Positions 3,309-49,411 of a DNA stretch of 64,000 nucleotides are shown piece by piece. Source of the DNA: Euglena gracilis (lineage: Eukaryota); NCBI GenBank assembly GCA_039621445.1, contig CP154954.1, forward strand, positions 1,488,001 to 1,552,000, given 5' to 3'. Position numbers and translations under genes: made by a program. Position 1 is the stretch's first letter. Each line of letters begins with the position of its first letter. The notes beneath the pieces were generated by a model that saw only the letters and a program-made list of their open reading frames with translations, searched no databases and was not told the origin of the DNA.

Positions 3309-22157
<18,849 letters not shown>

Positions 22158-22295
22158 AAATAATATTTTGTAATATAAAATAAGTAATCTCTAATATTAA
22201 CTAAAGAGCTAATTTTAGGTATTAAGATCCCCTATTTATATACTAAAAAAGGGAACACAAGCAAAAAATATTGCATAACAATCTATCAATTTACT

Positions 22296-23674
22296 ATGAA
22301 TAAAAAAACTAACGAAAGGCCTGTATTTCCTTTTACTTCTATTGTTGGACAAGAAGAGATGTGTGGCTAAACACATTGCACATTCAAATAAAAAACTTAA
22401 TAAAATAATATTATAAATTTAAAAAATAATAATTATTATTATTAAAAATAATTACTACCCTCTAAACTACAATTAATAAATAAAAAATAAAACAAATTGG
22501 CAAATAAAATACTGAATTTTCAACACAACTAAAAAAATTTTGTAAATTATTAAAATTTATTGTAGCTAATTGGAAGCAGTTTGGAAAACTATAGAAAATC
22601 CAAAAGAACATAAAATAACAATTTATAAATAAAAAACAAAGCTAAAAGGATAAACCACGTATAGTTTGAAAACAAATAAAATTTAGTTTTATGAAATTAT
22701 CATTAATCTTAAATGTAATAGATCCAAAAATAGGAGGTGTTATGATAATGGGTGATAGAGGAACAGGAAAGTCAACAATAGTTAGAGCGCTTGTTGACTT
22801 ACTACCACCTATTGATGTAATAGAAAACGACCCATATAATTCTGATCCATATGATACAGAATTAATGTCAGATGACGTTCTAGAAAAAATAAAAAAAAAC
22901 GAAAAAGTATCGATAATTCAAGTTAAAACACCTATGGTTGATTTACCATTAGGTGCAACTGAAGATCGTGTTTGTGGAACAATAGATATAGAAAAAGCAA
23001 TATCCGAAGGAAAAAAAGCATTCGAACCTGGTCTACTAGCACAAGCAAATAGAGGAATATTGTACGTTGATGAAGTTAACTTATTAGATGACCATTTAGT
23101 TGACGTTTTATTAGATTCCGCTGCTTCAGGATGGAACACGGTAGAAAGAGAAGGAGTTTCGATTTGCCATCCTGCAAGATTTATACTAGTAGGATCAGGA
23201 AATCCTGAAGAAGGAGAACTTAGACCACAATTACTAGATAGATTCGGAATGCATGCACAAATTAAAACACTAAAGGAACCAGCGCTTCGTGTAAAAATAG
23301 TACAACAACGAGAACTATTTGAAAAAAGCCCTAAAGAGTTCAAAGAAAAATATAAGGAAGAACAAAATAAACTAATGGAAAAAATTATAAATGCAAGAAA
23401 AAAATTAAAAAACATAATAATAAAATACGAACTTTTAGAAAAAATATCACAAATCTGTTCTGAACTAAATGTTGATGGACTAAGAGGAGATATGGTAACA
23501 AGTCGTGCAGCAAAAGCATTAGTAGCATTTGAAGATCGCACAGAAGTAACACCTAAAGACATTTTCACTGTAATTACGCTTTGTTTACGACATCGATTAC
23601 GTAAAGACCCTTTAGAATCAATAGATTCGGGATATAAAGTGCAAGAAACCTTTAAAAAAGTGTTCAATTACTAA
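22296..23674 (+). CDS. chlI: Magnesium chelatase subunit I (exons 22296-22360 and 22693-23674; 332-nt group II intron)
   Basis: [43 protein letters not shown]; Walker B ILYVDEVN. The intron runs GTGTGG...TTTTAT. Confidence 0.97.
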
Positions 23675-23834: not shown

Positions 23835-25691
23835 AAACTCTCGAAATAAAAAACGTTAATAAAAAAGTTGCAATATATATCTAGATTAAAATCAACGTCT
23901 TTTATTTTGAAAAATGTTAAATTTATAACAAAATTTGAATAATGGAAAGTACCCAAAACGTGATGTCGTAGATTGAAATCTTACAAAACAATAGTTGATA
24001 TTGATTTTTTGTTTTTTACATAATTATGTAAAAAATTTAATATTAGTTAAAATAATAATATAGACTTTGAAAAATTATGAAACTAAAAAGAAAAAGTAAA
24101 ATGTGAACTAGATTTACTTCTTAAAGACAAACTTATAGGTTTAAGCAAAAAACATTAGAAAAGCTAATTTTGAATTTTAAATTACTATTTATGGATAAAA
24201 GGAAATTAAATTAATTCAAAATTTTGATTTTTAAAATGAATCTAATTTCAAATCATAAATTCTCTTGCAAAGTAATAATTTTAATGACTTGGATTACTTT
24301 TGAAACGAACATGATTCACATTGTTTTCAAAATTTTTATTGTTTACTATATTGATGAGTATTGATGAGTTAACAAGATAAAACTATCTGGGTGTATAAAA
24401 AATATCATAGAATAATAATTGAATAAAAATAAAATATTCTAAAACATATAATTTTCTGGAATTTACAAACTTTATTACAAAAAAGTGTACAACAGAATTA
24501 TATATATACAAAAATTTATTTTTAAAAATATATAAATTATAACACTTTTAAAATTTTAATAGCTTCTTGAAAAATTTTAGTGACAGTAAAAAATAATAAA
24601 AACGCGTTTAATACATAATAACTACTATAAAGTATTTATATAGATTATTTTAAATCTTAAATAATCTATTATTATTACCTATTTTTGAAATAATATTAGT
24701 ATAAATATACATATTTAGTAATAAACTATTATCACAAATAGTGTAATCATTGTCATTTTCGTAAAATTTTAATTTCCAGCAACAAGCAAAATTTTGTTTA
24801 ACAAAGCTTTTTGCCGATTAAACTAATACAAATAATTTACCCACATTTTTGATATAAAGAAGTATTACAAGAAGTACAGATGAATAAATCAAAAGTAGTT
24901 ACAAAATATTATTAATATTTAATACCTTACAATTAATTTTTAGTATTGTATTTATTCATAAAAAATGAGATCGAACTTTTAGAGTACAATCATTTAGTCT
25001 ACCATAATTATATATTAAGTAACTTGAATATGACGTTTCAGAAGAATAATAGCATAAGTGATTACAGGAATAATAATAATAAGTAAGATAATCTATCATC
25101 ACGAATAATAATCTAACATTGAATAAGAACAAGAATAATAGAAATTGAGAAAAACTCTATATATATATCTAGACATTTCTGTTTGTTTCTAAGTAAAATC
25201 CTACGAAACATACAATTTTATATTACATTAAATATGTAACTCATGTAAAAATATTGTTAGCTCTAAACATCTTCTATTTTTTCATTATATCATTTTTCTG
25301 AAAAACCTATCTCTGATAATGAACTGTAATAATTAACTAACACTTATAAACTTTGTTTATCTTGAAATCTTAAACCTTAAAATATTATCTTGGAAAGTAA
25401 ACATCTTTTATCTGGCAGAAATAACCAACCAGTTCTTCCATCCGGACTTGACGTATGGATGGATTATGGATGGATACAACCTGATTGAGCAATAGAATCG
25501 AATCTAAGCATTTCCTCGGCAATGGGTTCACTTCCTTTTTACCCTTTAAGAAATTACGTATGCATTAGCCACACACATAGCTAAATAGAAAGCAGTTTGT
25601 GTGGTTCTTTGGATTACAATAAACGTTACGGAATTTAACCATAAAGTACTTAATAATTAATAAATCAGGGTTAATAATCAATAAAAAACCA

Positions 25692-25797
25692 TAAGGCGTA
25701 GGTCTCCAAAACCTGATGTAGTAGGTTCGAATCCTACAAAGCGCGCTTTTAGTGTACACATTATAGTAAATGTGCCCCTTGCTTGGTCACCAAGGGG
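25692..25797 (+). pseudogene. Partial pseudo-trnW(CCA) plus truncated 16S leader (orphan copy)
   Basis: Matches 32885-~32990. Only the anticodon arm (TAGGT-CTCCAAA-ACCTG), T arm and 3' acceptor strand are present. Confidence 0.85.
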
Positions 25798-25829: not shown

Positions 25830-26952
25830 TAAGTACATTGGTATATATAGTATATATAATATATATAAGTACATTAATATATATAAGTACATTGGTATAT
25901 ATAGTATATATAATATATATAAGTACATTAATATATATAAGTACATTGGTATATATAGTATATATAATATATATAAGTACATTAATATATATAAGTACAT
26001 TGGTATATATAGTATATATAATATATATAAGTACATTAATATATATAAGTACATTGGTATATATAGTATATATAATATATATAAGTACATTAATATATAT
26101 AATTACATTTGTATATATAGTATATTTAATATATATAAGTACATTAATATATATAAGTACATTGGTATATATAGTATATATAATATATAAGTACATTAAT
26201 ATATATAAGTACATTGGTATATATAGTATATATAATATATATAAGTACATTAATATATATAAGTACATTGGATAGTATATATAATATATATTAGTACATT
26301 AATTTAAATAAGTACATTGTTAAACATAGTATATATAATATATATAAGTACATTAATATATATAAGTACATTGGTATATATAGTATATATAATATATATA
26401 AGTACATTAATATATATAAGTACATTGGTATATATAGTATATATAATATATATAAGTATATGAATATATATAAGTACATTGATATATATATTATATATAG
26501 TATATATAAGTACATTTATATATATAAGTACATTGGTATATATAGTATATATAATATATATAAGTACATTAATATATATAAGTACATTGGTATATATAGT
26601 ATATATAATATATAAGTACATTAATATATATAAGTACATTGGTATATATAGTATATATAATATATATAAGTACATTAATATATATAAGTACATTGGTATA
26701 TATAGTATATATAATATATAAGTACATTAATATATATAAGTACATTGGTATATATAGTATATATAATATATATAAGTACATTAATATATATAAGTACATT
26801 GGTATATATAGTATATATAATATATATAAGTACATTAATATATATAAGTACATTGGTATATATAGTATATATAATATATATAAGTACATTAATATATATA
26901 AGTACATTGGTATATATAGTATATATAAGTACATTGGTATATATAAGTACAT
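25830..26952. repeat. 54-bp VNTR, about 20 units (AAGTACATTGGTATATATAGTATATATAATATATATAAGTACATTAATATATAT)
   Basis: Visible tandem array with some 52-bp and degenerate units. It corresponds to the known E. gracilis VNTR near the mapped replication origin. Confidence 0.95.
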
Positions 26953-27176: not shown

Positions 27177-28322
27177 ATGATTTTTACGATGTATTTCTTT
27201 AGAAATTTTGTTTTTTTATACTTTTTTATGAACTATATAATTAAAGTAAAATCTATTTTAATTAATCGATATTCGTTGGCTACCTGCAATGCAATTTTAT
27301 TGTATTTTTTTCAAACAAATTATTATAAAATTTATTTGTTAGTTAATACTAGTTTATCTTTTTACAATTTAATTTTTTTCCTTAGGAATTTTCTAAGGAT
27401 AGTAAAAAAAAAAAACGATCCAAAAGTTTTTCTTTTGGCTTTATTGATAATTTCGAAAAATTATATCCAATATGCGCTTTACTGTAATTTTTTGTTTCAA
27501 GTTGGTAACAGAACATTAAAAGTAATCAAGTCCGTTGAAATTTCTAAAAATGAAATTTTGAAAAACGACCCTTCGTTGAAGGCTTTGGAGTTTTGGAAAA
27601 AAATTAAAATATTTTATAGTAAGAATTTTATTTCCAAAATTGCCGTAATTATGGTAATTAGTTTTTCTGGTTATTGCGCATTTAATTTTGCATTTAAATT
27701 TTTTGGTGTACTTAAAGAATCTTCAAAAATCTTGGCTTCTTTTTTCTCTTTTAATCATGATCAAAAAAATGATAATTCTGAAGACAATCGTTCCGAAGAT
27801 GATTTAAAGTCAAGTCAAGACCCAGTAAATATTCCTTCTATCGAACAAAGTTTCAAAGTTGAAGATTTTTCAATTTTCAATCCTGATTTTTGGTCAACTG
27901 ATTTTGATAAAATTTTATTGGAAGAGGGTTATGACCTAGAGGGTTCATTAAGCACTTTATGGTTAACTCCAAGAACATTTATTGTGATGAAAAGGATCGT
28001 GCAAACTGGTTTCTATTTAAGTATGTGTGTAGCTAATGCATATGCAATTGCTGAAACCGTAAAAAGAGGTCAGCCGGTTAGCAATGATATGTTACAATTT
28101 AATCCGACTTTGCAAACAGGATTTGTCTACCCATACGGGCAGTCAATGTCAGCACCCGGTCAAATACCTGGGGGGAATTTGGGCCGAACGTTTGTTCCTG
28201 AAGAAAAAATGTTTACTTCACAAGATCTAGCAGTTTCATCCAACTGTAATGTGGGGGATGGATTTGTTGAGGTTATAGAAATCCCATTTAATTATTATAA
28301 GGATGCATTACCCCCCGAGTAA
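27177..28322 (+). CDS. Hypothetical protein (381 aa) with hydrophobic N-terminus and acidic central linker
   Basis: Long ATG-initiated ORF whose 3' third is GC-richer. No recognised family. Confidence 0.65.
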   Translation: MIFTMYFFRNFVFLYFFMNYIIKVKSILINRYSLATCNAILLYFFQTNYYKIYLLVNTSLSFYNLIFFLRNFLRIVKKKNDPKVFLLALLIISKNYIQYALYCNFLFQVGNRTLKVIKSVEISKNEILKNDPSLKALEFWKKIKIFYSKNFISKIAVIMVISFSGYCAFNFAFKFFGVLKESSKILASFFSFNHDQKNDNSEDNRSEDDLKSSQDPVNIPSIEQSFKVEDFSIFNPDFWSTDFDKILLEEGYDLEGSLSTLWLTPRTFIVMKRIVQTGFYLSMCVANAYAIAETVKRGQPVSNDMLQFNPTLQTGFVYPYGQSMSAPGQIPGGNLGRTFVPEEKMFTSQDLAVSSNCNVGDGFVEVIEIPFNYYKDALPPE

Positions 28323-28331
28323 TATTCCTTT

Positions 28332-30513
28332 CTATTTTCGATTTCAAAGAAAAATATCAATATATTAAATTTTTTATGTATTAAATAACTTGATACATAA
28401 TTATTAGTAGTCACTACGTTTTTTATACGTAATATTATTTCTTTAACACATGGTTTTTTATATAAAAATAGGTCAATTTTTTTTATTATTTTTTTTAAAA
28501 AAAAAAAAATGCTTTGTAGACTATGTGGTAACTACATTTCAGTATCGTAATTAGTACGACAGCTCGAATTTGGGTTTTGCAATTTTTTTTTTCATTTTTT
28601 TTTTTTTTTTTGCAAATAGGGGGGGTTGTTCTAAAATTCGGTGATTTTATTTATGGGAGATTTTTATGCATTCAATAGTGCCGGGTAAAAATTGGCATGT
28701 TTTTATTAAGACAGGATTCGGTAGTTTTGAGGATTTTAACTTATTATTCATCAAAAAAAGCAATTTCTTACATTTTATTTATGATTTTTAGGATGTATTT
28801 ATTCAGAAAATTTATTTTTTTCTTTAAGCAAAACTGTGTTATTTTTTTTGCTTATATATTTTTCCTTGATTCCAGAGTTCTTGCAATTTACTTCGGGATT
28901 TTTTAAAATTTAACCTACAACGAAATTGTAGTTAAGATATATTTTAATGATCTATTTTTTTATATTTTTTAAAAAGTTGTTATTTGTTATTATTTTTTTT
29001 TTAAATTAAAATTTTTATATTTTTAAAAATAATTTTTTTTAAAAAAAATTATTATTATAGAAAAAAAAAATCCTTAATTGGTAACGTTGTGATTATGTTA
29101 CTTCATCGTAGTGGGTCGCAAGTTCGAATTGAAGGTTTGCAATTTTTTTTTTCATTTTTTTTTTTTTTTTTGCATAATGGAGATATGGGAGTTTGAGGTT
29201 TTCAAAAAATGATTTATTTTTTTATTTATGGGAGATTTTATTATGTTTTATTTTATGTGCTCAATGGTTCCCGAAAGGGATTATCAAAAATTAATGGAAG
29301 ATAAAAAGGAATTAGAAAGAAATGATTATCCTATTTTTAATGAAAAAAAACCTAATGATCAACTTTTTAGTTGGGAAGATGTTGTTCTGAGAAACGAAAT
29401 TGCTGAAAAACGTCGCAGAAAACAGTATGGCGAATCATATGAATATGATTCTAAGCAAAGAGAAAAGCAATTTTATGAGTTTATTGAAAAATTTCTTGAG
29501 GAAAAAGGAGTTGAGTTACCGCGTAACTTATACACAGATAATACTATTATAGAAATGCAAAAAACGGAGGAGTAAAAAAATTACCTCTGATGTCAATACA
29601 TACTATTTTCGATTTCAAAGAAAAATATCAATATATTAAATTTTTTATGTATTAAATAACTTGATACATAATTATTAGTAGTCACTACGTTTTTTATACG
29701 TAATATTATTTCCTTAACACATGGTTTTTTATATAAAAATAGGTCAATTTTTTTTATTATTTTTTTAGAAAAAAAAAAATGCTTTGTAGACTATGTGGTA
29801 ACTACATTTCAGTATCGTAATTAGTACGACAGCTCGAATTTGGGTTTTGCAATTTTTTTTTTCATTTTTTTTTTTTTTTTTGCAAATAGGGGGGGGTTGT
29901 TCTAAAATTCGGTGATTTTATTTATGGGAGATTTTTATGCATTCAATAGTGCCGGGTAAAAATTGGCATGTTTTTATTAAGACAGGATTCGGTAGTTTTG
30001 AGGATTTTAACTTATTATTCATCAAAAAAAGCAATTTCTTACATTTTATTTATGATTTTTAGGATGTATTTATTCAGAAAATTTATTTTTTTCTTTAAGC
30101 AAAACTGTGTTATTTTTTTTGCTTATATATTTTTCCTTGATTCCAGAGTTCTTGCAATTTACTTCGGGATTTTTTAAAATTTAACCTACAACGAAATTGT
30201 AGTTAAGATATATTTTAATGATCTATTTTTTTATATTTTTTAAAAAGTTGTTATTTGTTATTATTTTTTTTTCAATTAAGATTTTTATATTTTTCACACT
30301 CATTTTTTTTTAAAAAAATTATTATTATAGAAAAAAAATCCTTAATTGGTAACGTTGTGATTATGTTACTTCATCGTAGTGGGTCGCAAGTTCGAATTGA
30401 AGGTTTGCAAATTTTTTTTTCATTTTTTTTTTTTTTTTGCATAATGGAGATATGGAAGTTTGAGGTTTTCAAAAAATGATTTATTTTTTTATTTATGGGA
30501 GATTTTATTATGT
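28332..30513 (+). repeat. ~915-bp direct repeat (28332-~29246 and 29603-~30513)
   Basis: Identical ORFs 28697..28906 and 29968..30177. Both copies start CTATTTTCGATTTCAAAG and end ATGGGAGATTTTATTATGT. Confidence 0.92.
29228..29575 (+). CDS. Hypothetical charged protein (115 aa), partly paralogous to downstream ORFs
   Basis: Starts MGDFIM..SMVP like 30495. EDKKELERND..NDQLF resembles EEKKELEIND..NDQFL of 30956..31549. Confidence 0.5.
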   Translation: MGDFIMFYFMCSMVPERDYQKLMEDKKELERNDYPIFNEKKPNDQLFSWEDVVLRNEIAEKRRRKQYGESYEYDSKQREKQFYEFIEKFLEEKGVELPRNLYTDNTIIEMQKTEE

Positions 30514-30983
30514 ATTCAATGGTTCCAGGAAAAAACTGGCATGTTTTTATTAAAACAGGGTTCGGTAGTTTTGAGGATTTTAACTTATTATTCATCAAAA
30601 AGTGGAAAGAGTTAATTAATTATAACTCTATTTCTTTTATTATTTATGGTTTTGATTTGTCTGAAAATAATTTAAACAACTTTTGTGAAGTGACTATAGA
30701 GGTCTATATAGAATTTAATAAAAATTACCGAAGGCATGGTCTTAAAAAATTATTTTCTTTTGAAAAAAATTCTGTTATTGTAGAAAAGGGATCGAGTAGT
30801 AAAACTTCACTTGATAATTTTTTTTCTAAAACAGGGAATAAAAACATTGAAGTTTGTTGGTCAGGTGTTCCAAGGTTTGAAAATGGTTTAAAAAATTCTT
30901 TAAGTTTTGATTTTGTTATTAAAAATAATTTATTAAGTCGTGCGCGAAAAGATCATTGTTTTCCTTCGTTTTTTCTAAATTGA
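30495..30983 (+). CDS. Circovirus/nanovirus-type Rep (HUH) endonuclease-like domain, catalytically degenerate
   Basis: Manual motif match: PGKNWHVFI (motif I-like), FIIYGFD..TIEVYIEFNKNYRRHGLKKLF (motif II region), VEKGSSSKTSLDNFFSKTGN (motif III region), then WSGVPR. Confidence 0.55.
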   Translation: MGDFIMYSMVPGKNWHVFIKTGFGSFEDFNLLFIKKWKELINYNSISFIIYGFDLSENNLNNFCEVTIEVYIEFNKNYRRHGLKKLFSFEKNSVIVEKGSSSKTSLDNFFSKTGNKNIEVCWSGVPRFENGLKNSLSFDFVIKNNLLSRARKDHCFPSFFLN

Positions 30984-31549
30984 TTTCCAATTCCTCAGAA
31001 AATTATTTAAAAGTGAAAGAAAAAATAACAGAAGAGAAAAAGGAATTAGAAATAAATGATTCTAATAATTTTTTACACGATCATTTTAATGTTTTGAAAG
31101 CTAATGATCAATTTTTAAACATCATTGAAAAATATATAATAGAGTACAAAAATTTGTTTTTTTTAACGAGTAAAAACGATGCAATAAAACTTCGTTCTAT
31201 GTTGTTGAAGTATATATCTGAAGTCGCAGTATTAGAAAATAGTATCTCAAATTCTAATATTTCTAATATTTTTTTATTTAAGCAAGCTTCTAAGTTTTAT
31301 AAACATAATTCTTTAAAAAACGATAATTATAAAAACTGGGATTTTAACTGGATTTTTGTGGAAATGCTTCTTATTTTTTTTCTAGAAAAAGCAAAAAATA
31401 AAAAAATTGATAAATTTGAATTATATACTTTAGTGAACAAAGAAATTTATGGTGAAGAACAGTTAGATATAATGGTTAAAAACTTTAGAAAAAGAGCTTG
31501 TGAAAATGTCGATTTACGGCAGATTCGGTCTTCATTGCCTTGTTTTTGA
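30956..31549 (+). CDS. Hypothetical protein, probably the frameshifted continuation of 30495..30983 (about 350 aa fused)
   Basis: Overlaps the upstream ORF by 28 nt and has no ATG at its called start. Confidence 0.5.
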   Translation: MFSFVFSKLISNSSENYLKVKEKITEEKKELEINDSNNFLHDHFNVLKANDQFLNIIEKYIIEYKNLFFLTSKNDAIKLRSMLLKYISEVAVLENSISNSNISNIFLFKQASKFYKHNSLKNDNYKNWDFNWIFVEMLLIFFLEKAKNKKIDKFELYTLVNKEIYGEEQLDIMVKNFRKRACENVDLRQIRSSLPCF

Positions 31550-31920
31550 TTTTTATATAGGGAGAAAAGTATGACAAAAAAAGAAGAAAAAAATTTAAAT
31601 AATACAAAAATCAATTTAACAGTAAAAAAAATTTATAAAAAATATTGTTCTTATAAAGCACAATATGATGAAAAAAACCTGGACCAAAAATTTAGTTGAA
31701 AGCTTTTTTTTTTTATCATTGAAAATGGGCATATTTTAAACGTAGTAGAAGTAGAATATTTTTCTTAAAGCGTGTCAAAAAAATCGATTAATTAAAATAT
31801 AGTGTCATGGAAAATGTGATTATTCTATCACTTATTTAAATATGCTTTTTTATCAATGTCAATTTGTAGAATAATTGGCGTTTTTTTTGATGGAGTATAG
31901 TGAGTTTGCCTACTTTTTAC

Positions 31921-32852
31921 CTTATTAAATTAATAAATTTAAAATTGACTTATTAAAAACTTATAGGGAGTAAATATTAAGGAAGTACCTTATCAGGATT
32001 TTGATAAGTATTCTCACTATTGAGGTTAAATATGGATTAGTTGATTATGCGTTAGTACGAGAATTTCATAGAACAGGTGGACCCTCATGTGCATTCGTAT
32101 TTTATTAAAGAAGTCGATACTAAATTGGCAAATTTTTTCGATATATCTATTGATTCTAAAATTTATAGGCCAGAGTTAACAATGAGAAAGATTTGCTCGA
32201 CTATTTAATAAAACAAATATTTAACTTTGTGGATGCTTCAGAAAATTTCATGGCTTCGGAATCAATTCTTAAAAAATATGGTAAATATTTTCAATATCTT
32301 CCTTTGGAAGAAAGGATGATTGAATTAGTGAAAAAAGGGGACATAGAAAATGCTATGTTACTGTTTGAAAAAGAAAAACCTTCAGAATTTGTATATAAGG
32401 GCGACGCTATTGAACGTCAATTAAGAAACATATATTTAAGTACGAGATTAGGTGTGAAATAAAAAATTAATTTTAATGAATACATAATACCCAAAGACTT
32501 AAGGTGGATGTTGGATATTTATGAATCCCATCTAAATATGGGTAAAAATAAGGTATTTTTAATTTTAGGCAGTGAACATAGATATTTAATCGATTTTTTC
32601 GAATCTTATTTGCAATTTAAAGGCTTTTATCCTTTAGTAGTTAAGAAATCCAAGGATTTACTGAAATTAAACAATACTTATCATTATGATGCGATAATTT
32701 TTGTCAACTCAAATATCCTTGAATATCAAAATGTAAATGAGATAAAAAACATGTTCAACTCTTTAGAAACGACGTTAACTGCTTATTATGGAATATCTTT
32801 GATAAAGGTAGGGTCGTGGATTAAAGCCTTTCGTTCAACTTGCATGTGTTAA
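31921..32852 (+). pseudogene. Geminivirus-type rolling-circle Rep, frameshifted and 3'-truncated
   Basis: Motifs in order: LKLTY (31939-31953), VREFHRTGG/PHVHSYF (32055-32103), ANFFDI..IYRPEL, DLLDYLIK (Y at 32202), GDIENAMLLFEKEKPSEFVYKGDAIERQLRNIY, VFLILGS, HYDAIIFVN. Confidence 0.72.
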
Positions 32853-32884
32853 GCATAGCTAAATATTGCTTTTCGTTAAAATTG

Positions 32885-32938
32885 TAAGGCGTAGGTCTCC
32901 AAAACCTGATGTAGTAGGTTCGAATCCTACAAAGCGCG
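32885..32938 (+). pseudogene. Partial pseudo-trnW(CCA) in rRNA leader 1
   Basis: 3' two-thirds of a tRNA with CCA anticodon and no 5' acceptor or D arm. Confidence 0.85.
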
Positions 32939-33019
32939 CTTTTAGTGTACACATTATAGTAAATGTGCCCCTTGCTTGGTCACCAAGAGGGTGAAAGGAT
33001 TTGACCAACTTTGATGTTT

Positions 33020-33763
33020 TGGAAATGACGAGTTTGATCCTTGCTCAGGGTGAACGCTGGCGGTATGCTTAACACATGCAAGTTGAACGAAATTACTAGC
33101 AATAGTAATTTAGTGGCGGACGGGTGAGTAATATGTAAGAATCTGCGCTTGGGTGAGGAATAACAGATGGAAACGTTTGCTAATGCCTCATAATTTACTA
33201 GATCTATGTGAGTAGCTAGTTAAAGAGAATTTCGCCTAGGCATGAGCTTGCATCTGATTAGCTTGTTGGTGAGGTAAAGGCTTACCAAGGCGACGATCAG
33301 TAGCTGATTTGAGAGGATGATCAGCCACACTGGGATTGAGAACGGAACAGACTTTTACGGAAGGCAGCAGTGAGGAATTTTCCGCAATGGGCGCAAGCCT
33401 GACGGAGCAATACCGCGTGAAGGAAGAAGGCCTTTGGGTTGTAAACTTCTTTTCTCAAAGAAGAAGAAATGACGGTATTTGAGGAATAAGCATCGGCTAA
33501 TTCCGTGCCAGCAGCCGCGGTAATACGGGAGATGCGAGCGTTATCCGGAATTATTGGGCGTAAAGAGTTTGTAGGCGGTCAAGTGTGTTTAATGTTAAAA
33601 GTCAAAGCTTAACTTTGGAAGGGCATTAAAAACTGCTAGACTTGAGTATGGTAGGGGTGAAGGGAATTTCCAGTGTAGCGGTGAAATGCGTAGAGATTGG
33701 AAAGAACACCAATGGCGAAGGCACTTTTCTAGGCCAATACTGACGCTGAGAAACGAAAGCTGA

Positions 33764-33795
<32 letters not shown>

Positions 33796-33888
33796 TTGGC
33801 CGTAAACTATGGATACTAAGTGGTGCTGAAAGTGCACTGCTGTAGTTAACACGTTAAGTATCCCGCCTGGGGAGTACGCTTGCACAAG

Positions 33889-33969
<81 letters not shown>

Positions 33970-34037
33970 AGGATTTGACAGGATCTAGGAGGAAGTTTGA
34001 AAGAACGCAGTACCTTCGGGTATCTAGACACAGGTGG

Positions 34038-34089
<52 letters not shown>

Positions 34090-34349
34090 CCTTTTTTTTA
34101 ATTAACGCTTGTCATTTAGAAATACTGCTGGTTATTACCAGAGGAAGGTGAGGACGACGTCAAGTCATCATGCCCCTTATATCCTGGGCTACACACGTGC
34201 TACAATGGTTAAGACAATAAGTTGCAATTTTGTGAAAATGAGCTAATCTTAAAACTTAGCCTAAGTTCGGATTGTAGGCTGAAACTCGCCTACATGAAGC
34301 CGGAATCGCTAGTAATCGCCGGTCAGCTATACGGCGGTGAATACGTTCT

Positions 34350-34386
<37 letters not shown>

Positions 34387-34506
34387 TGGCTGTGCCCGAA
34401 GTTATTATCTTGCCTGAAAAGAGGGAAATACCTAAGGCCTGGCTGGTGACTGGGGTGAAGTCGTAACAAGGTAGCCGTACTGGAAGGTGTGGCTGGAACA
34501 ACTCCC
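33020..34506 (+). rRNA. rrs: 16S rRNA copy 1 (divergent; 9-nt deletion in a conserved helix)
   Basis: GAGTTTGATCC, GTGCCAGCAGCCGCGGTAA and AAGTCGTAACAAGGTA are present. GAGCGCAAC is missing at ~34090. Confidence 0.95.
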
Positions 34507-34592
34507 TTTAGTTTTTTAACTAAAAAAATGTATAGATTGAAAACAATGAAAAATAAAAAAAATAAGTAGGGAAACCTCTTATTTTTCCAAGA

Positions 34593-34666
34593 GGGCTATT
34601 AGCTCAGTTGGTTAGAGCATACCCTTGATAAGGGTAAGGTCGCTAGTTCAAGTCTAGCATGGCCCT
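34593..34666 (+). tRNA. trnI-GAU: tRNA-Ile(GAU)
   Basis: GGGCTATTAGCTCAG..TACCC-TTGATAA-GGGTA..GTTCAAGT..TGGCCCT. Confidence 0.96.
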
Positions 34667-34675
34667 CTTGGTTTT

Positions 34676-34748
34676 GGGGGTATAGCTCAGTTGGTAGAGC
34701 GCTGCCTTTGCAAGGCAGATGTCAGCGGTTCGAGTCCGCTTATCTCCA
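34676..34748 (+). tRNA. trnA-UGC: tRNA-Ala(UGC)
   Basis: GGGGGTATAGCTCAG..CTGCC-TTTGCAA-GGCAG..GTTCGAGT..ATCTCCA. Confidence 0.96.
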
Positions 34749-34764
34749 AAAAGGTTTTGATGTA

Positions 34765-36693
34765 GGTTCAAATGAACAAGGGCTTATGCGGGATTGCTTG
34801 GCATTTAGAGTCGAAGAAGGGCGTAGAAATTAACGATATGCTTTAGGGAGCTAAAGACGAGCTTTAATCTAAAGATTCCCGAATGGGGCAACCTATTACT
34901 TTAACATTACAATGAAATGGTATACAAATAATGTAGAGAACTTGGTGAACTGAAACATCTTAGTAGCCGAAGGAAAAGAAAGCAAAAGCGATTTTCTTAT
35001 TAGTGGCGAGCTAGCTAACGGAAATCAGCCTAAACCTTTATGGGTGTTGTGGGTATATTATAATTACTGAAAAAGATAGAGAATTTGTTGAAAACAAAAT
35101 CAAAGAGGGTTTTAAATCCCGTATTTGTTTTTAAAAAGTAATTTTTGATTTTCCCGAGTAGCATAGAGCACGTGGAATTCTGTGTGAATCAGCGAGGACC
35201 ATCTCGTAAGGCTAAATACTCCTAAATGACCGATAGTGTACGAGTACCGTGAGGGAAAGCTGAAATAGAACACTGAGAAGTGAGTGAAATAGAATATGAA
35301 AGCATAAGTTTACAAGCAGTAGGAGATCTATTTAAAGATTGACTGTGTGCCTGTTGAAGAATGAGCCGGCGACTTATAGGTGATGGCAAGGTTAAGGTTT
35401 TTCCGGAGCCATAGTGAAATCGAGCTTAAATAAAGCGAAAAACTTTCTTCTTGAAAGTTTATGTCATTGCTTATAGACCCGAACCCAGGTGATCTAATCA
35501 TGGTCAGGTTGAAGTTTTGGTAAAAAACAGAATGGAGGACCGAACCCACCAATGTTGAAAAATTGGGGGATGAACTGTGATTAGGGGAGAAATTCCAATC
35601 GAACTTGGAGCTAGCTGGATCTCTTCGAAATGCGTTGAGGCGCAGCGTTTAATTATGGTAAACATTAGGGGTAAAGCACTGTTTCGATGCGGGCTATGAA
35701 AAATGGTACCAAGTTGTGGCAAACTCTGAATACTAAGTTATATTTCAATTAATCAGTGAGACAGTGGGGGATAAGCTTCATTGTCAAGAGGGAAACAGCC
35801 CAGATCACTACTTAAGGCCCCTAAATAATTACTAAGTGGTAAAGGATGTACTATTACATAGACAACCAGGAGGTTGGCTTAGAAGCAGCCATTCCTTTAA
35901 AAAGTGCGTAATAGCTTACTGGTCAAGTGATAGTGCGCCGAAAATGAACGGGACTAAGTAATTTGCCGAAGGTGTGAGAGAAATCGGTAGAAGAGCGTTC
36001 TGTGTTGAAGAGAAGGAATAGTGAAAATAGTTCTGGATTAAACAGAAGTGAGAATGTCGGCTTAAGTAACGAAAACATTGGTGAAAATCCTATGCTCCGA
36101 AAACCTAAGGTTTCCTTAGCCAGGTTCGTCCTCTAAGGGTTAGTCAGGTCCTAAAATAAGGTTTAACAACGTAAATTGATGGATGACAGGTTAATATTCC
36201 TGTACCGAATGCTCACTTGTAAGGAGTGACGAAAAAGGCTAGATCGGCCACGTGATGGTTTGTGGTTTAAGGGTTCAAGAGGTATCAAATATTAAAAAAA
36301 ATATTTTGTCTTAAGGCCTGAATAGTATAAATACTACGGTATTGAAAGTGATTGATGTCATGTTTCCAAGAAAAACTTTTGTTTATGTATAGTGAGCTCG
36401 CCTGTACCGTAAACTGACACAGGTAGGTTAGTAGAATATACTAAGGAGCGCGAGATAACTCTTTCTAAGGAACTCGGCAAAATGACTTCGTAACTTCGGA
36501 AGAAGAAGTACCTCTAATGAGGTGGCAGAAAAGAGGTCCAAGCGACTGCTTACCAAAAGCACAGGTCTCCGCGAAGTTGAAAAACCATGTATGGGGGCCG
36601 AGGCCTGCTCAGTGCAGGAAGGTTAAAGAAATTGGTTAGCGTAAGCAAAGCTAGTGACTGAAGCCCCTGTGAACAGCGGCAATAACTATAATT

Positions 36694-36746
<53 letters not shown>

Positions 36747-37232
36747 TTAACGATTTGGACACTGTCTCAGAAAGAGACTCGGTGAAATAGAATTGACTGT
36801 GAAGATGCGGTCTACTTGCACTTGGACAGAGACCCTATGAAGCTTTACTGTATCCTGAAATTGGTTTCGGGCTTTTTTTGCGCAGAATAGGTGGGAGGCT
36901 ATGATCTTGTCTTTTGGGATACGGGGAGCCGAAAAATGAGATACCACTCTGAGAAAGCTAGAAATCTAATCTTAATCTTATGTACAATCATGATAATTGA
37001 CAGTTTCAGGCGGGCAGTTTTACTGGGGCGGTAGCCTCCTAAAAAGTAACGGAGGCGTACAAAGGTTTTCTCAGGCTAGACGGAAATTAGTTGTGGAGTG
37101 TAAAGGCATAAGAAAGCTTGACTGTGAGACTTATAAGTCAAACAGAGACTAAAGTCGGTCTTAGTGACCCGACGGTGCTGTATGGAAAGGCCGTCGTAAA
37201 CAGATAAAAGTTACTCTAGGGATAACAGGCTG

Positions 37233-37292
<60 letters not shown>

Positions 37293-37309
37293 ACCTGGGG
37301 CGGTAGTAC

Positions 37310-37344
<35 letters not shown>

Positions 37345-37655
37345 TACGTGAGCTGGGTTCAGAACGTCGAGAGACAGTTCGGTCCATATCCGGTGTGAGC
37401 GTTAGAGTAATGAAAGGCGCTTTCCTTAGTACGAGAGGACCGGGAAGGACGCACCACTGATGTACCAGTTTTTGTGCCAACAGAATACGCTGGGTAGTCA
37501 AGTGCGGAGTGGATAACTGCTGAAAGCATATAAGTAGGAAGCCCACCTTAAGATAAGTACTCTTCATAGGTCACGGTAAGACGAACCGTTTGATAGGTAT
37601 TAGGTGTACAATTGGTAACAATTTTAGCCGAGATATACTAACCGACCGAAAATTT
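34765..37655 (+). rRNA. rrl: 23S rRNA copy 1 (several indels relative to copies 2 and 3)
   Basis: Conserved LSU motifs GAACTGAAACATCTTAGTA, CCTAAGGTAGCGAAATTCCTTG and the sarcin-ricin loop AGTACGAGAGGAC. Ends are approximate. Confidence 0.95.
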
Positions 37656-37735
37656 TTTCCTATATGAAAACAAAACATTTATTTTTACTTGTCACTTTTT
37701 TAAGATTTAAAAGTTTCTTGAATGAACTTTTATTT

Positions 37736-37851
37736 TAGGGTGCTCTTGTCTTTATGGATCCACTTAAAACATTTCGAACTTGCAAGTTAAACATAAAGGG
37801 TAAATAGATACTTGAAAGGTTACTTTCCGGGAAAAGATTTTAGTGCCCTTA
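37736..37851 (+). rRNA. rrf: 5S rRNA copy 1
   Basis: ~116 nt after 23S with pairing termini AGGGTGCT/AGTGCCCT and TTTCGAACTTGCAAGTTAA. Confidence 0.88.
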
Positions 37852-38704
37852 TGGGAAGTTTAATTTATTTAATTGTCTCTTAGTGAGTTTATTTATTAAT
37901 ATTAACTCGATTTTCGAGTAATTTTTATGACTGCCGTTACGTTAGTGTTTTATTGCATGGATAAATGTATTGTGGTATAATTAAACCAAGGAATTTGTCA
38001 AACCACGTTTCCTTTAAGTTTGAATTTTTTTTGGCCAAAACATGATGCTTCCGAAAAAATAAGACAATCTGTTTATAGAAATCAGTGAATTTCGTAATAT
38101 TTTTCTTTTAAAATTTTAAACGATATGAATAATATCCTCGAGTGTTTGGAAAATGACTATGTTTCTTCGCTAATATAAAAGATTAATCACAAAATTCAAC
38201 AAGATAGGTTGAATCATAGTGAGAATATTAGGTAATCTTCTGATAAGAGTTTTATTTTGTTGTACATTATAGTTATTGCTACTTTGTATTTGGTTCTTTG
38301 TGTTATGTGTGTGCTTTTTAGTTGTAAATTTTTTGCTAGTAAGAAGCGTGTCGTTCATTGTCGATTTGGACGAATATTTATAAAATGCTACAAGAGACCA
38401 AAATGTCTTTATACTTCTTATATTGCTGCTGAGTACCCTATATTTTGTGATATTGAAAAATATTAAGGTAAGGTTCCTAGACTTTCATACGTAAATGCTC
38501 ATGCGCACAGTTTAGGTGTTATGCTTTTATCCCTGATCTTGTGAATTCTTTTCATTCACAAGAAATAACTTAGCTTAATTCCTAGTGTAAATTTTTCCGT
38601 ACTTTAACGTGTGGCTGGGACAATTTTTTTATTTTTAATTAAAATACCGTATAAATTTTAAAAAATAAAAAAATCAAAAGGAAAATTTTTTATTTTTCAA
38701 AGAT

Positions 38705-38778
38705 CACTATTATCTTTTATTATTATAGAATACCTTTGATAAGGGTAGGGTCGTGGATTGAATCCTTGTATTAGCCAA
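38705..38778 (+). pseudogene. Pseudo-trnI(GAU) in rRNA leader 2
   Basis: TAGAATACCTTTGATAAGGGTAGGGTCG resembles trnI TAGAGCATACCCTTGATAAGGGTAAGGTCG; the other arms are decayed. Confidence 0.7.
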
Positions 38779-38800
38779 ATATTTCTTTTCTTTAAAATCC

Positions 38801-38854
38801 TAAGGCGTAGGTCTCCAAAACCTGATGTAGTAGGTTCGAATCCTACAAAGCGCG
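38801..38854 (+). pseudogene. Partial pseudo-trnW(CCA) in rRNA leader 2
   Basis: Same sequence as 32885-32938. Confidence 0.85.
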
Positions 38855-38935
38855 CTTTTAGTGGGCACATTATAGTAAATGTGCCCCTTGCTTGGTCACC
38901 AAGAGGGTGAGAGGATTTGACCAACTTTGATGTTT

Positions 38936-39679
38936 TGGAAATGACGAGTTTGATCCTTGCTCAGGGTGAACGCTGGCGGTATGCTTAACACATGCAAGTT
39001 GAACGAAATTACTAGCAATAGTAATTTAGTGGCGGACGGGTGAGTAATATGTAAGAATCTGCGCTTGGGTGAGGAATAACAGATGGAAACGTTTGCTAAT
39101 GCCTCATAATTTACTAGATCTATGTGAGTAGCTAGTTAAAGAGAATTTCGCCTAGGCATGAGCTTGCATCTGATTAGCTTGTTGGTGAGGTAAAGGCTTA
39201 CCAAGGCGACGATCAGTAGCTGATTTGAGAGGATGATCAGCCACACTGGGATTGAGAACGGAACAGACTTCTACGGAAGGCAGCAGTGAGGAATTTTCCG
39301 CAATGGGCGCAAGCCTGACGGAGCAATACCGCGTGAAGGAAGACGGCCTTTGGGTTGTAAACTTCTTTTCTCAAAGAAGAAGAAATGACGGTATTTGAGG
39401 AATAAGCATCGGCTAATTCCGTGCCAGCAGCCGCGGTAATACGGGAGATGCGAGCGTTATCCGGAATTATTGGGCGTAAAGAGTTTGTAGGCGGTCAAGT
39501 GTGTTTAATGTTAAAAGTCAAAGCTTAACTTTGGAAGGGCATTAAAAACTGCTAGACTTGAGTATGGTAGGGGTGAAGGGAATTTCCAGTGTAGCGGTGA
39601 AATGCGTAGAGATTGGAAAGAACACCAATGGCGAAGGCACTTTTCTAGGCCAATACTGACGCTGAGAAACGAAAGCTGA

Positions 39680-39711
<32 letters not shown>

Positions 39712-39804
39712 TTGGCCGTAAACTATGGATACTAAGTGGTGCTGAAAGTGCACTGCTGTAGTTAACACGTTAAGTATCCCGCCTGGGGAGTACGCTTGCA
39801 CAAG

Positions 39805-39885
<81 letters not shown>

Positions 39886-39953
39886 AGGATTTGACAGGAT
39901 CTAGGAGGAAGTTTGAAAGAACGCAGTACCTTCGGGTATCTAGACACAGGTGG

Positions 39954-40018
<65 letters not shown>

Positions 40019-40274
40019 TTTTTTAATTAACGCTTGTCATTTAGAAATACTGCTGGTTATTACCGGAGGAAGGTGAGGACGACGTCAAGTCATCATGCCC
40101 CTTATATCCTGGGCTACACACGTGCTACAATGGTTAAGACAATAAGTTGCAATTTTGTGAAAATGAGCTAATCTTAAAACTTAGCCTAAGTTCGGATTGT
40201 AGGCTGAAACTCGCCTACATGAAGCCGGAATCGCTAGTAATCGCCGGTCAGCTATACGGCGGTGAATACGTTCT

Positions 40275-40312
<38 letters not shown>

Positions 40313-40431
40313 GGCTGTGCCCGAAGTTATTATCTTGCCTGAAAAGAGGGAAATACCTAAGGCCTGGCTGGTGACTGGGGTGAAGTCGTAACAAGGTAGC
40401 CGTACTGGAAGGTGTGGCTGGAACAACTCCC
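38936..40431 (+). rRNA. rrs: 16S rRNA copy 2
   Basis: Universal SSU motifs intact, including GCAACGAGCGCAACCC. Confidence 0.97.
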
Positions 40432-40516
40432 TTTAGTTTTTTAACTAAAAAAATGTATAGATTGGAAACAATGAAAAATAAAAAAATAAGTAGGGAAACC
40501 TCTTATTTTTCCAAGA

Positions 40517-40590
40517 GGGCTATTAGCTCAGTTGGTTAGAGCATACCCTTGATAAGGGTAAGGTCGCTAGTTCAAGTCTAGCATGGCCCT
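40517..40590 (+). tRNA. trnI-GAU: tRNA-Ile(GAU)
   Basis: Same as copy 1. Confidence 0.96.
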
Positions 40591-40599
40591 CTTGGTTTT

Positions 40600-40672
40600 G
40601 GGGGTATAGCTCAGTTGGTAGAGCGCTGCCTTTGCAAGGCAGATGTCAGCGGTTCGAGTCCGCTTATCTCCA
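40600..40672 (+). tRNA. trnA-UGC: tRNA-Ala(UGC)
   Basis: Same as copy 1. Confidence 0.96.
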
Positions 40673-40688
40673 AAAAGGTTTTGATGTA

Positions 40689-46377
<5,689 letters not shown>

Positions 46378-46457
46378 TTTCCTATATGAAAACAAAACAT
46401 TTATTTTTACTTGTCACTTTTTTAAGATTTAAAAGTTTCTTGAATGAACTTTTATTT

Positions 46458-46573
46458 TAGGGTGCTCTTGTCTTTATGGATCCACTTAAAACATTTCGAA
46501 CTTGCAAGTTAAACATAAAGGGTAAATAGATACTTGAAAGGTTACTTTCCGGGAAAAGATTTTAGTGCCCTTA
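46458..46573 (+). rRNA. rrf: 5S rRNA copy 2
   Basis: Same as copy 1. Confidence 0.88.
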
Positions 46574-47426
46574 TGGGAAGTTTAATTTATTTAATTGTCT
46601 CTTAGTGAGTTTATTTATTAATATTAACTCGATTTTCGAGTAATTTTTATGACTGCCGTTACGTTAGTGTTTTATTGCATGGATAAATGTATTGTGGTAT
46701 AATTAAACCAAGGAATTTGTCAAACCACGTTTCCTTTAAGTTTGAATTTTTTTTGGCCAAAACATGATGCTTCGGAAAAAATAAGACAATCTGTTTATAG
46801 AAATCAGTGAATTTCGTAATATTTTTCTTTTAAAATTTTAAACGATATGAATAATATCCTCGAGTGTTTGGAAAATGACTATGTTTCTTCGCTAATATAA
46901 AAGATTAATCACAAAATTCAACAAGATAGGTTGAATCATAGTGAGAATATTAGGTAATCTTCTGATAAGAGTTTTATTTTGTTGTACATTATAGTTATTG
47001 CTACTTTGTATTTGGTTCTTTGTGTTATGTGTGTGCTTTTTAGTTGTAAATCTTTTGCTAGTAAGAAGCGTGTCGTTCATTGTCGATTTGGACGAATATT
47101 TATAAAATGCTACAAGAGACCAAAATGTCTTTATACTTCTTATATTGCTGCTGAGTACCCTATATTTTGTGATATTGAAAAATATTAAGGTAAGGTTCCT
47201 AGACTTTCATACGTAAATGCTCATGCGCACAGTTTAGGTGTTATGCTTTTACCCCTGATCTTGTGAATTCTTTTCATTCACAAGAAATAACTTAGCTTAA
47301 TTCCTAGTGTAAATTTTTCCGTACTTTAACGTGTGGCTGGGACAATTTTTTTATTTTTAATTAAAATACCGTATAAATTTTAAAAAATAAAAAAATCAAA
47401 AGGAAAATTTTTTATTTTTCAAAGAT

Positions 47427-47500
47427 CACTATTATCTTTTATTATTATAGAATACCTTTGATAAGGGTAGGGTCGTGGATTGAATCCTTGTATTAGCCAA
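47427..47500 (+). pseudogene. Pseudo-trnI(GAU) in rRNA leader 3
   Basis: Same as 38705-38778. Confidence 0.7.
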
Positions 47501-47522
47501 ATATTTCTTTTCTTTAAAATCC

Positions 47523-47576
47523 TAAGGCGTAGGTCTCCAAAACCTGATGTAGTAGGTTCGAATCCTACAAAGCGCG
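47523..47576 (+). pseudogene. Partial pseudo-trnW(CCA) in rRNA leader 3
   Basis: Same as 32885-32938. Confidence 0.85.
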
Positions 47577-47657
47577 CTTTTAGTGAGAACATTATAGTAA
47601 ATGTGCCCCTTGCTTGGTCACCAAGAGGGTGAGAGGATTTGACCAACTTTGATGTTT

Positions 47658-48401
47658 TGGAAATGACGAGTTTGATCCTTGCTCAGGGTGAACGCTGGCG
47701 GTATGCTTAACACATGCAAGTTGAACGAAATTACTAGCAATAGTAATTTAGTGGCGGACGGGTGAGTAATATGTAAGAATCTGCGCTTGGGCGAGGAATA
47801 ACAGATGGAAACGTTTGCTAATGCCTCATAATTTACTAGATCTATGTGAGTAGCTAGTTAAAGAGAATTTCGCCTAGGCATGAGCTTGCATCTGATTAGC
47901 TTGTTGGTGAGGTAAAGGCTTACCAAGGCGACGATCAGTAGCTGATTTGAGAGGATGATCAGCCACACTGGGATTGAGAACGGAACAGACTTCTACGGAA
48001 GGCAGCAGTGAGGAATTTTCCGCAATGGGCGCAAGCCTGACGGAGCAATACCGCGTGAAGGAAGACGGCCTTTGGGTTGTAAACTTCTTTTCTCAAAGAA
48101 GAAGAAATGACGGTATTTGAGGAATAAGCATCGGCTAATTCCGTGCCAGCAGCCGCGGTAATACGGGAGATGCGAGCGTTATCCGGAATTATTGGGCGTA
48201 AAGAGTTTGTAGGCGGTCAAGTGTGTTTAATGTTAAAAGTCAAAGCTTAACTTTGGAAGGGCATTAAAAACTGCTAGACTTGAGTATGGTAGGGGTGAAG
48301 GGAATTTCCAGTGTAGCGGTGAAATGCGTAGAGATTGGAAAGAACACCAATGGCGAAGGCACTTTTCTAGGCCAATACTGACGCTGAGAAACGAAAGCTG
48401 A

Positions 48402-48433
<32 letters not shown>

Positions 48434-48526
48434 TTGGCCGTAAACTATGGATACTAAGTGGTGCTGAAAGTGCACTGCTGTAGTTAACACGTTAAGTATC
48501 CCGCCTGGGGAGTACGCTTGCACAAG

Positions 48527-48607
<81 letters not shown>

Positions 48608-48675
48608 AGGATTTGACAGGATCTAGGAGGAAGTTTGAAAGAACGCAGTACCTTCGGGTATCTAGACACAGGTGG

Positions 48676-48740
<65 letters not shown>

Positions 48741-48996
48741 TTTTTTAATTAACGCTTGTCATTTAGAAATACTGCTGGTTATTACCGGAGGAAGGTGAGG
48801 ACGACGTCAAGTCATCATGCCCCTTATATCCTGGGCTACACACGTGCTACAATGGTTAAGACAATAAGTTGCAATTTTGTGAAAATGAGCTAATCTTAAA
48901 ACTTAGCCTAAGTTCGGATTGTAGGCTGAAACTCGCCTACATGAAGCCGGAATCGCTAGTAATCGCCGGTCAGCTATACGGCGGTGAATACGTTCT

Positions 48997-49034
<38 letters not shown>

Positions 49035-49153
49035 GGCTGTGCCCGAAGTTATTATCTTGCCTGAAAAGAGGGAAATACCTAAGGCCTGGCTGGTGACTGG
49101 GGTGAAGTCGTAACAAGGTAGCCGTACTGGAAGGTGTGGCTGGAACAACTCCC
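47658..49153 (+). rRNA. rrs: 16S rRNA copy 3
   Basis: Universal SSU motifs intact. Confidence 0.97.
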
Positions 49154-49239
49154 TTTAGTTTTTTAACTAAAAAAATGTATAGATTGGAAACAATGAAAAA
49201 TAAAAAAAATAAGTAGGGAAACCTCTTATTTTTCCAAGA

Positions 49240-49313
49240 GGGCTATTAGCTCAGTTGGTTAGAGCATACCCTTGATAAGGGTAAGGTCGCTAGTTCAAGT
49301 CTAGCATGGCCCT
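49240..49313 (+). tRNA. trnI-GAU: tRNA-Ile(GAU)
   Basis: Same as copy 1. Confidence 0.96.
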
Positions 49314-49322
49314 CTTGGTTTT

Positions 49323-49395
49323 GGGGGTATAGCTCAGTTGGTAGAGCGCTGCCTTTGCAAGGCAGATGTCAGCGGTTCGAGTCCGCTTATCTCCA
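49323..49395 (+). tRNA. trnA-UGC: tRNA-Ala(UGC)
   Basis: Same as copy 1. Confidence 0.96.
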
Positions 49396-49411
49396 AAAAG
49401 GTTTTGATGTA

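Follow-up and report, generated by a model that had tools for sequence, protein, structure and literature searches.

A probable relic of a rolling-circle Rep gene upstream of the first rRNA operon of a Euglena-type chloroplast genome

What kind of gene, if any, occupies the DNA directly 5' of the first ribosomal RNA (rRNA) operon in a Euglena-type chloroplast genome? The question is raised by a 64-kb stretch of contig CP154954.1 (assembly GCA_039621445.1, positions 1,488,001 to 1,552,000), called the window below, which is part of such a genome and has a GC content of 29.7%. A preliminary description of the window, made from its letters, had proposed that a hidden geminivirus-type gene for a rolling-circle Rep protein is scattered over several frames at this place. 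A Rep-derived sequence is indeed found on the + strand at 31929-32783, and it is very probably a non-functional, plastome-integrated relic of the Rep gene of a small plasmid- or virus-like circular element. What was taken for a hidden gene is better described as a pseudogene, given that it is interrupted by TAA codons and two frameshifts and is cut off at its 3' end at 32783.

Homology to Rep proteins was examined with a family profile of 388 positions, which was built from 47 relatives of at least 300 residues among the uncultured Reps P0008-P0069, with 15 shorter ones excluded and no Euglena rows. It was run against every stop-to-stop fragment of 8 residues or more that six-frame translation of the whole window yields, 4552 in total. 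Adjacent and colinear pieces of the relic on the + strand take the first four ranks (Table 1), and the next match has an E value of 1.4. The whole locus, read through with an X at each break, matches the family profile at E 1.2e-43. The nuclease part, read through in the same manner, matches a nuclease-domain profile from the relatives at E 8.8e-9, in agreement with the earlier assignment of the N-terminal part to the HUH Rep nucleases, and the alignment spans HVH (motif II), the FFD…IYRPEL stretch and DYLIK (motif III). The motif II fragment alone gives E 0.0031 on a nuclease-only profile and aligns to solved Rep nuclease domains, which the family profile itself matches at E 1.7e-29 to 6.5e-22. 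The HUH motif and the catalytic tyrosine are both retained, as had been described: HVH aligns with the HxH of the relatives and of the solved domains, and the tyrosine of DYLIK falls in the nearly invariant Y and K columns of the YxxK motif. Just 5' of motif II, the KYGLVDYALVREFHRTGG segment of the relic is nearly identical to DYALVREFHEDGSPHLH in P0023.

The motif I of Rep proteins is FLTY-like, and two candidates for it lie at a suitable distance, KFKIDLLKTY in frame 1 and NLKLTY in frame 2, neither of which is aligned by the family profile. The frame-2 string had been named as motif I, but the frame-1 string resembles the KKFRI..K.LFLTY of the family and needs one lesion fewer. By manual count, the candidate motif I is 34 residues from motif II, compared to 31-32 in the relatives.

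General databases report the same kind of protein for the nuclease part. The N-terminal read-through P0005, with the first frameshift as X, is matched by REP_ORF2-G2P (E 0.013) and by Gemini_AL1 (E 0.026, positions 40-87 of 113), and all five of its matches among PDB sequences are replication-associated proteins, the best at a sub-threshold E of 0.033. Addition of the putative motif I (P0212) changes little, with Pfam E values of 0.014 and 0.037 and a best PDB E value of 0.0095. Both Pfam families reported for the nuclease read-throughs are therefore Rep families, below threshold at E 0.013-0.037. A correspondence with Gemini_AL1 and Gemini_AL1_M had been anticipated, and it holds in part: Gemini_AL1 (PF00799) matches at 14.5-15 bits (E 0.026-0.037), under its gathering cut-off of 24 bits, and Gemini_AL1_M (PF08283) matches neither P0004, the Euglena gracilis protein introduced below, nor P0001, the C-terminal read-through with X at the stop, and reaches 18.8 bits, against a cut-off of 24, in the relative P0018. 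A phmmer search of the PDB with P0001 gave a chance match only.

The protein closest to P0001 is P0004, a plastid protein of E. gracilis with 281 residues that is named 'Uncharacterized 33.1 kDa protein in rbcL-atpE intergenic region' and that fits the unassigned open reading frame (ORF) of about 290 residues predicted for another euglenid plastome. Residues 1-187 of P0004 and window positions 32250-32810 are 79% identical without gaps (148 of 187 residues identical, 169 of 187 similar). The annotated P0004 begins 3' of motif III. It differs from the window copy in that it is intact, without a stop, and keeps its C-terminal residues, about 95 in number. The two copies share the loss of Walker A and a degenerate Walker B, and the decay of both motifs that was noted before is evident in the alignment with the family. 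In place of GxxGxGK[TS], which hardly varies across the family in its G and K columns, the window has GSEHRYL (32568-32588) and P0004 has GGELRYL; in place of the DD of Walker B, the window has VN (32703-32708) and P0004 has SD. In P0004 the Asn of motif C is replaced by Ser and the Arg pair by Met-Glu, whereas the window copy is truncated before these sites.

The structural comparison was made with P0004. An AlphaFold model built with 51 aligned sequences has a mean confidence (predicted local distance difference test, pLDDT) of 88.3, compared to only 49.8 for a single-sequence model. The top Foldseek match of the better model is the superfamily 3 (SF3) helicase of papillomavirus E1 (E 6.7e-6), with AAV2 Rep40 further down, and RuvB and other AAA+ ATPases score about equally. 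According to the model, P0004 is predicted to keep the SF3 fold even though all of its catalytic motifs are lost.

The relic can be read from 31929 in frame 1, in frame 2 after 32082 and in frame 1 again after about 32178. All peptide strings quoted in the preliminary description are present at their places: NLKLTY* in frame 2 (31936-31956); YALVREFHRTGG in frame 1, then a +1 shift at 32082 followed by PHVHSYF; VDTKLANFFDISIDSKIYRPEL in frame 2; NNEKDLLDYLIK in frame 1 again from about 32178-32181; a long EERMIEL...RNIY stretch that runs up to the in-frame TAA at 32460-32462; and FNEYIIPKDLRW, KVFLILGSEHRY, ...YDAIIFVN and TLTAYYG, each in frame 1. After this TAA, frame 1 is open up to 32852. 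The relic accounts for the two anonymous ORFs seen previously, 32193-32462 (89 aa) and 32508-32852 (114 aa), and the same two ORFs, with one residue changed in each, are known as P0007 and P0006 from a separate contig of 1379 nt, where the split between them coincides with the TAA.

The decay is uneven along the locus. Between 32169 and 32783, a single stop is found among the 205 codons of the Rep frame, while the other two frames, with 204 codons each, contain 25 and 22. Shuffling the bases of this segment yields a mean of 19.0 stops and a minimum of 7, with one stop or fewer in none of 2000 shuffles, and the frame is open far beyond chance. Over 31929-32168, every frame is closed, with 6, 6 and 9 stops in 79-80 codons, and the nuclease part has three lesions in 80 codons, the TAA at 31971 and the frameshifts at 32082 and about 32178. 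At the 3' end, positions 32783-33100 are 89% identical to 38720-39016 and 47442-47738, which lie 5' of the second and third 16S genes. Because the identity of this repeat starts at 32783, where the similarity to P0004 fades, the rRNA-operon repeat is concluded to have taken the place of the last codons of the gene, about 95 of them. Recoding and an alternative genetic code were rejected as explanations, given that three kinds of lesion occur and that the gene lacks its 3' end.

Table 1. Features of the Rep relic and the window fragments that match the family profile
Feature	Position	Strand	Details
Possible motif I remnant	31929..31973	+	frame 1 KFKIDLLKTY (31938-31964); in-frame TAA 31971-31973; no alignment by the family profile
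Nuclease segment 5' of motif II (…KYGLVDYALVREFHRTGG)	31974..32081	+	frame 1; profile positions 45-68; E 0.34 alone
First frameshift, +1, single extra base	32082..32082	+	same in contigs of runs X2, X13 and X16
Motif II (HUH) and GRS-like stretch (NFFDIS…IYRPEL)	32083..32178	+	frame 2; HVH 32086-32094; profile 65-104; E 0.012
Second frameshift, -1	32178..32181	+	about 3 residues fewer than relatives; no differences in the X13 410-nt and X2 1216-nt contigs
Motif III (DYLIK) and central, oligomerisation-type domain	32181..32459	+	Tyr codon 32202-32204; profile 105-194; E 9.1e-24
In-frame TAA	32460..32462	+	Ala in E. gracilis P0004; same in contigs of X2, X13 and X16
Degenerate SF3-helicase domain	32463..32783	+	profile positions 201-303; E 1.2e-6
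Start of rRNA-operon repeat (leader)	32783..33021	+	takes the place of about the last 95 Rep codons
Profile fragment	31974..32105	+	profile 45-68 of 388; E 0.34
Profile fragment	32056..32205	+	profile 65-104 of 388; E 0.012
Profile fragment	32169..32459	+	profile 105-194 of 388; E 9.1e-24
Profile fragment	32463..32849	+	profile 201-303 of 388; E 1.2e-6

Some of the breaks had been suspected to be assembly errors, a suspicion that sequencing runs do not bear out. Sampled words of 31850-32860 are mostly present in 20 runs from 13 studies, and contigs of the runs X2, X13 and X16 were compared with the window. The X2 contig of 1216 nt covers 31704-32860, including the junction with the rRNA leader, without a difference. 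Pieces from X13 (31892-32301 and 32425-32525) and X16 (31975-32096 and 32424-32516) span breaks without substitutions or indels. Because the contigs of three runs carry the identical sequence, the breaks are not errors of this assembly alone, with the caveats that such contigs may hide rare variants and that some of the runs may be the source sample.

The relatives of the gene point to its origin. An exhaustive HMMER search with P0004 over 1.84 billion representatives returned 65 sequences at E<=1e-3, 17 at E<=1e-10 and 2 at E<=1e-30, with the query counted. Other than P0006 and P0007, the matches are mostly proteins of 330-570 residues that align through their C-terminal two thirds, and the ten best full-length ones all have an N-terminal Gemini_AL1 domain above the cut-off (34-80 bits), together with weak P-loop matches. 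The nearest full-length relatives are the uncultured Reps P0008-P0069, with 24-33% identity and E values down to 2e-23. They have the three-domain order in common with the relic but, unlike the Euglena copies, have intact HUH, YxxK, Walker A and B, motif C and Arg motifs. They also reside on small contigs and not in a plastome; the eight that were looked up lie on contigs of 1130-2758 nt, a size that proves little because short contigs are common in that collection. Lysine-rich N-terminal extensions with RGRP (AT-hook-like) motifs precede the nuclease domain in P0009, P0010, P0012, P0015 and P0017.

For one relative, the contig L001, a circle can be drawn: its 2508 nt include an exact terminal repeat of 121 nt, which leaves a circle of 2387 nt with the Rep as its single long ORF and no second one. 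Four iterons of 12-14 nt of the ACTAAGAATCAC type are found at 918-981 of L001, and a GC-rich stem at 1122-1161 has a loop with TAACATTAC, which presumably differs by a single base from the nonanucleotide of geminiviruses. When a tree of 55 rows is rooted on a begomovirus Rep, the two Euglena sequences pair with a support of 100 on a long stem (1.7) and with branches of 0.26 for the window and 0.087 for E. gracilis. The pair falls within a 12-row group of uncultured Reps that includes the Rep of L001, with a support of 92, which is not decisive.

More distant relatives are found among geminiviruses and phytoplasma plasmids. A profile that includes P0004 aligns by hhalign with the begomovirus Rep P0208 over 318 columns (residues 3-333 of 361) at a probability of 99.9% and E 1.5e-32. 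The Geminiviridae Rep shares full-length homology with the family, including HUH, the GRS-like stretch, YxxK, the central domain and the SF3 helicase, but it is distant, given that P0208 and the relative P0008 are 28% identical. Phytoplasma plasmid Reps are the sole matches, in 11 records, among 72,556 bacterial plasmid records, with 24-36% identity and E values of 2e-6 to 4e-4 over the nuclease and part of the central domain. They differ in being on bacterial plasmids and in matching only part of the query (19-47%). Metagenome scans with P0004 and P0006 found no relative, viral-contig scans with P0018, P0010 and P0009 (three of the four such scans) found none, and PHROGs gave no match for P0004. 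Of the proposal that a virus or plasmid Rep was integrated here, homology and domain order support an integrated Rep; its nearest relatives are found on small contigs and a Rep-only circle and are not geminiviruses or genomoviruses.

Taken together, these data suggest a history in which the ancestral gene would have encoded a rolling-circle initiator with an HUH nuclease, a central domain and an SF3 helicase, and the donor would have been a small circular DNA element with a Rep related to those of geminiviruses and phytoplasma plasmids. The Walker A lesion shared with P0004 suggests that integration and loss of the ATPase predate the split of the window species from E. gracilis. The uneven decay suggests that the nuclease part was lost first, such that an ORF without a nuclease, consisting of the central and dead-helicase part, would have stayed open longer; E. 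gracilis still has such an ORF. Judged by its sequence, the window copy is likely to have nothing functional left and would neither nick nor unwind DNA.

There are precedents for both halves of this history. PMC4814812 describes plasmids of red algae with geminivirus-related replicases, as well as plasmid-derived DNA in red-algal plastomes, and is thus a precedent for algal Rep plasmids and for their integration into plastids, albeit in another algal lineage and likened here by description and not by sequence. PMC3198968 reports endogenous Rep sequences of circular single-stranded DNA viruses in eukaryotic nuclear genomes; these are likewise decayed, integrated Rep genes, and the title covers eukaryotic genomes generally. 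The words Euglena, chloroplast and plastid do not occur in PMC3198968, nor does Euglena in PMC4814812, and no report linking a euglenid plastome to a Rep gene was found in openly licensed PMC papers and bioRxiv, supplements excluded.

Several observations weigh against the interpretation as an integrated Rep relic. The nuclease read-through scores 14.5-16.2 bits, compared to Pfam cut-offs of 24 and 27.8, and Pfam reports nothing relevant for P0001, for the two short pieces or for P0004. A remnant of motif I is plausible from the sequence but is without statistical support. The model of P0004 leans on aligned sequences of active helicases. Circularity is shown for just one relative, L001. Pfam has no match to a capsid or other gene of such an element among the ORFs at 27177-31549, where divergent capsids could be missed, and no origin hairpin, or nonanucleotide in a stem, is found in the window. 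TAAYATTAC occurs at 7 sites where 3.7 are expected, a chance level given that at least 7 occur in 10 of 100 shuffles. The relic is therefore unlike geminiviruses in that no capsid or other viral genes were found beside it, there is no TAATATTAC hairpin and its Pfam scores are under the cut-off. TAATATTAC occurs twice, at 28429 and 29700, where both instances are copies in a repeat of 1271 nt and neither is in a stem. Neither rbcL nor atpE, the named neighbours of P0004, was identified among 29 ORFs or fragments scanned in the window, which leaves orthology unsupported by gene order, and a second Rep copy could exist elsewhere in the plastome, outside the window.

The open frame might instead reflect exaptation, in which the central and dead-helicase part (the 89-aa and 114-aa ORFs, or the 281-aa E. 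gracilis protein) serves as a plastid protein, for instance a DNA-binding or oligomerising factor. A single stop in 205 codons where about 19 are expected would be consistent with this, as would the conservation of 148 identical and 169 similar residues out of 187 between the window and E. gracilis. The E. gracilis ORF, moreover, is intact at 281 aa despite a very AT-rich genome, and its branch is shorter than that of the window. The window frame, however, is broken by a TAA, its last codons (about 95) were lost to the rRNA leader and every ATPase motif is gone, and such a role is considered improbable. The direction of transfer could also be questioned, in that the gene could be native to euglenid plastids, either inherited vertically or passed on to small circles that captured it or that are themselves plastid-derived plasmids. 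The nearest relatives are AT-rich (30% GC in L001, 28% here), and the place of the Euglena pair in the group of relatives has the moderate support of 92. A native origin is nonetheless very unlikely, given that the family is a full three-domain Rep with homology over its whole length to geminivirus Rep and with homology to phytoplasma plasmid Reps, that close identity is limited to P0004 and to the two ORFs on one 1379-nt contig, and that the decayed copy is the one in the plastome.

An assembly chimera or contamination could be suspected from an artefactual poly-G tract within the window, at about 42800-45150. Three other runs, which carry two organism labels, nevertheless have contigs that match the window exactly within 31704-32860 and across the rRNA-leader junction, and a named plastid homologue exists in E. 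gracilis, which makes a chimera hard to credit. The integrated relic of a small circular element thus remains the preferred interpretation. To our knowledge, foreign DNA in chloroplast genomes is rare, and the relic would be a clear case of it in a secondary green plastid, with a Rep-encoding rolling-circle replicon as the donor. It also supplies an identity for the E. gracilis chloroplast ORF that remains uncharacterized in its source listing, and it points to likely donors in a clade of tiny Rep-bearing elements, one of which is shown as a Rep-only circle. Such elements may thus have been hosted in the past, or may be hosted still, by euglenids or their plastids.

The surroundings of the relic include a tandem-repeat array. 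A 54-bp tandem repeat with 20.6 copies and 95% matches occupies 25830-26928 and lies 5' of both the first 16S gene (by 6.1 kb) and the relic (by about 5 kb). PMC3308993 places the plastid origin of E. gracilis at tandem repeats some 6 kb 5' of the extra 16S gene, a region that the array resembles. The cumulative G-C curve of the window has its minimum around 22 kb and is near-minimal to about 27 kb. Because the relic lies about 5 kb from the array and the E. gracilis origin is mapped to tandem repeats in PMC3308993, it is worth asking whether plasmid integration is connected with the plastid origin region. It is doubtful, and offered only as speculation, that the origin region, with its 54-bp array and repeated anonymous ORFs, descended from or was remodelled by the replication module of a plasmid, and that the Rep derivative of E. 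gracilis, which lacks the nuclease and is ATPase-dead, was kept to bind the origin or to control copy number.

The DNA from the array to the relic contains anonymous ORFs (27177-28322 and 30495-31549) without family matches. PHROGs gave none for three neighbouring ORFs, and the ESM Atlas gave no usable match for the neighbouring ORF of 381 residues. The C-terminal part of this ORF (27960-28226, +) has 40% protein identity to 25387-25641 (-), a diverged inverted duplication that flanks the array. Direct repeats with a spacing of 1271 nt and 95-100% identity extend over 28332-30600, with a third, partial copy near 30303-30601. A piece of the rRNA leader of 106-113 nt (32878-32990) is copied with 96-99% identity at 25685-25797, just before the array and 7.2 kb upstream.

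In the remainder of the window, chlI is at 22691-23671 and a reaction-centre exon at 21906-22187 (-), and a group II intron and a maturase are also present. No entry of the protein collection is more than 92% identical to this ChlI, and its best named match is Euglena deses at 90%, in keeping with a Euglena-type chloroplast genome. Three tandem rRNA operons, with tRNA-Ile and tRNA-Ala in each spacer, span 33022-52493, and rpoB/rpoC1-like pieces are found 3' of them. The poly-G tract (GC 0.90, G-skew about 1) splits the second of the three 23S genes between 42707 and 45534 and gives rise, on either strand, to spurious ORFs as long as 772 aa; it is almost certainly a sequencing or assembly artefact. 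A perfect inverted repeat of 29 nt joins the leader (32829-32857) and the 5' part of the first 16S gene (33064-33092). It may be a processing stem, and the same leader segment is equally complementary to the 5' parts of the 16S genes in the other operons (38980-39008 and 47702-47730). Finally, a tRNA-like element at 32866-32938 in the 16S leader, with an Rfam score of 37.4 bits and no ARAGORN call, is probably a pseudo-tRNA.

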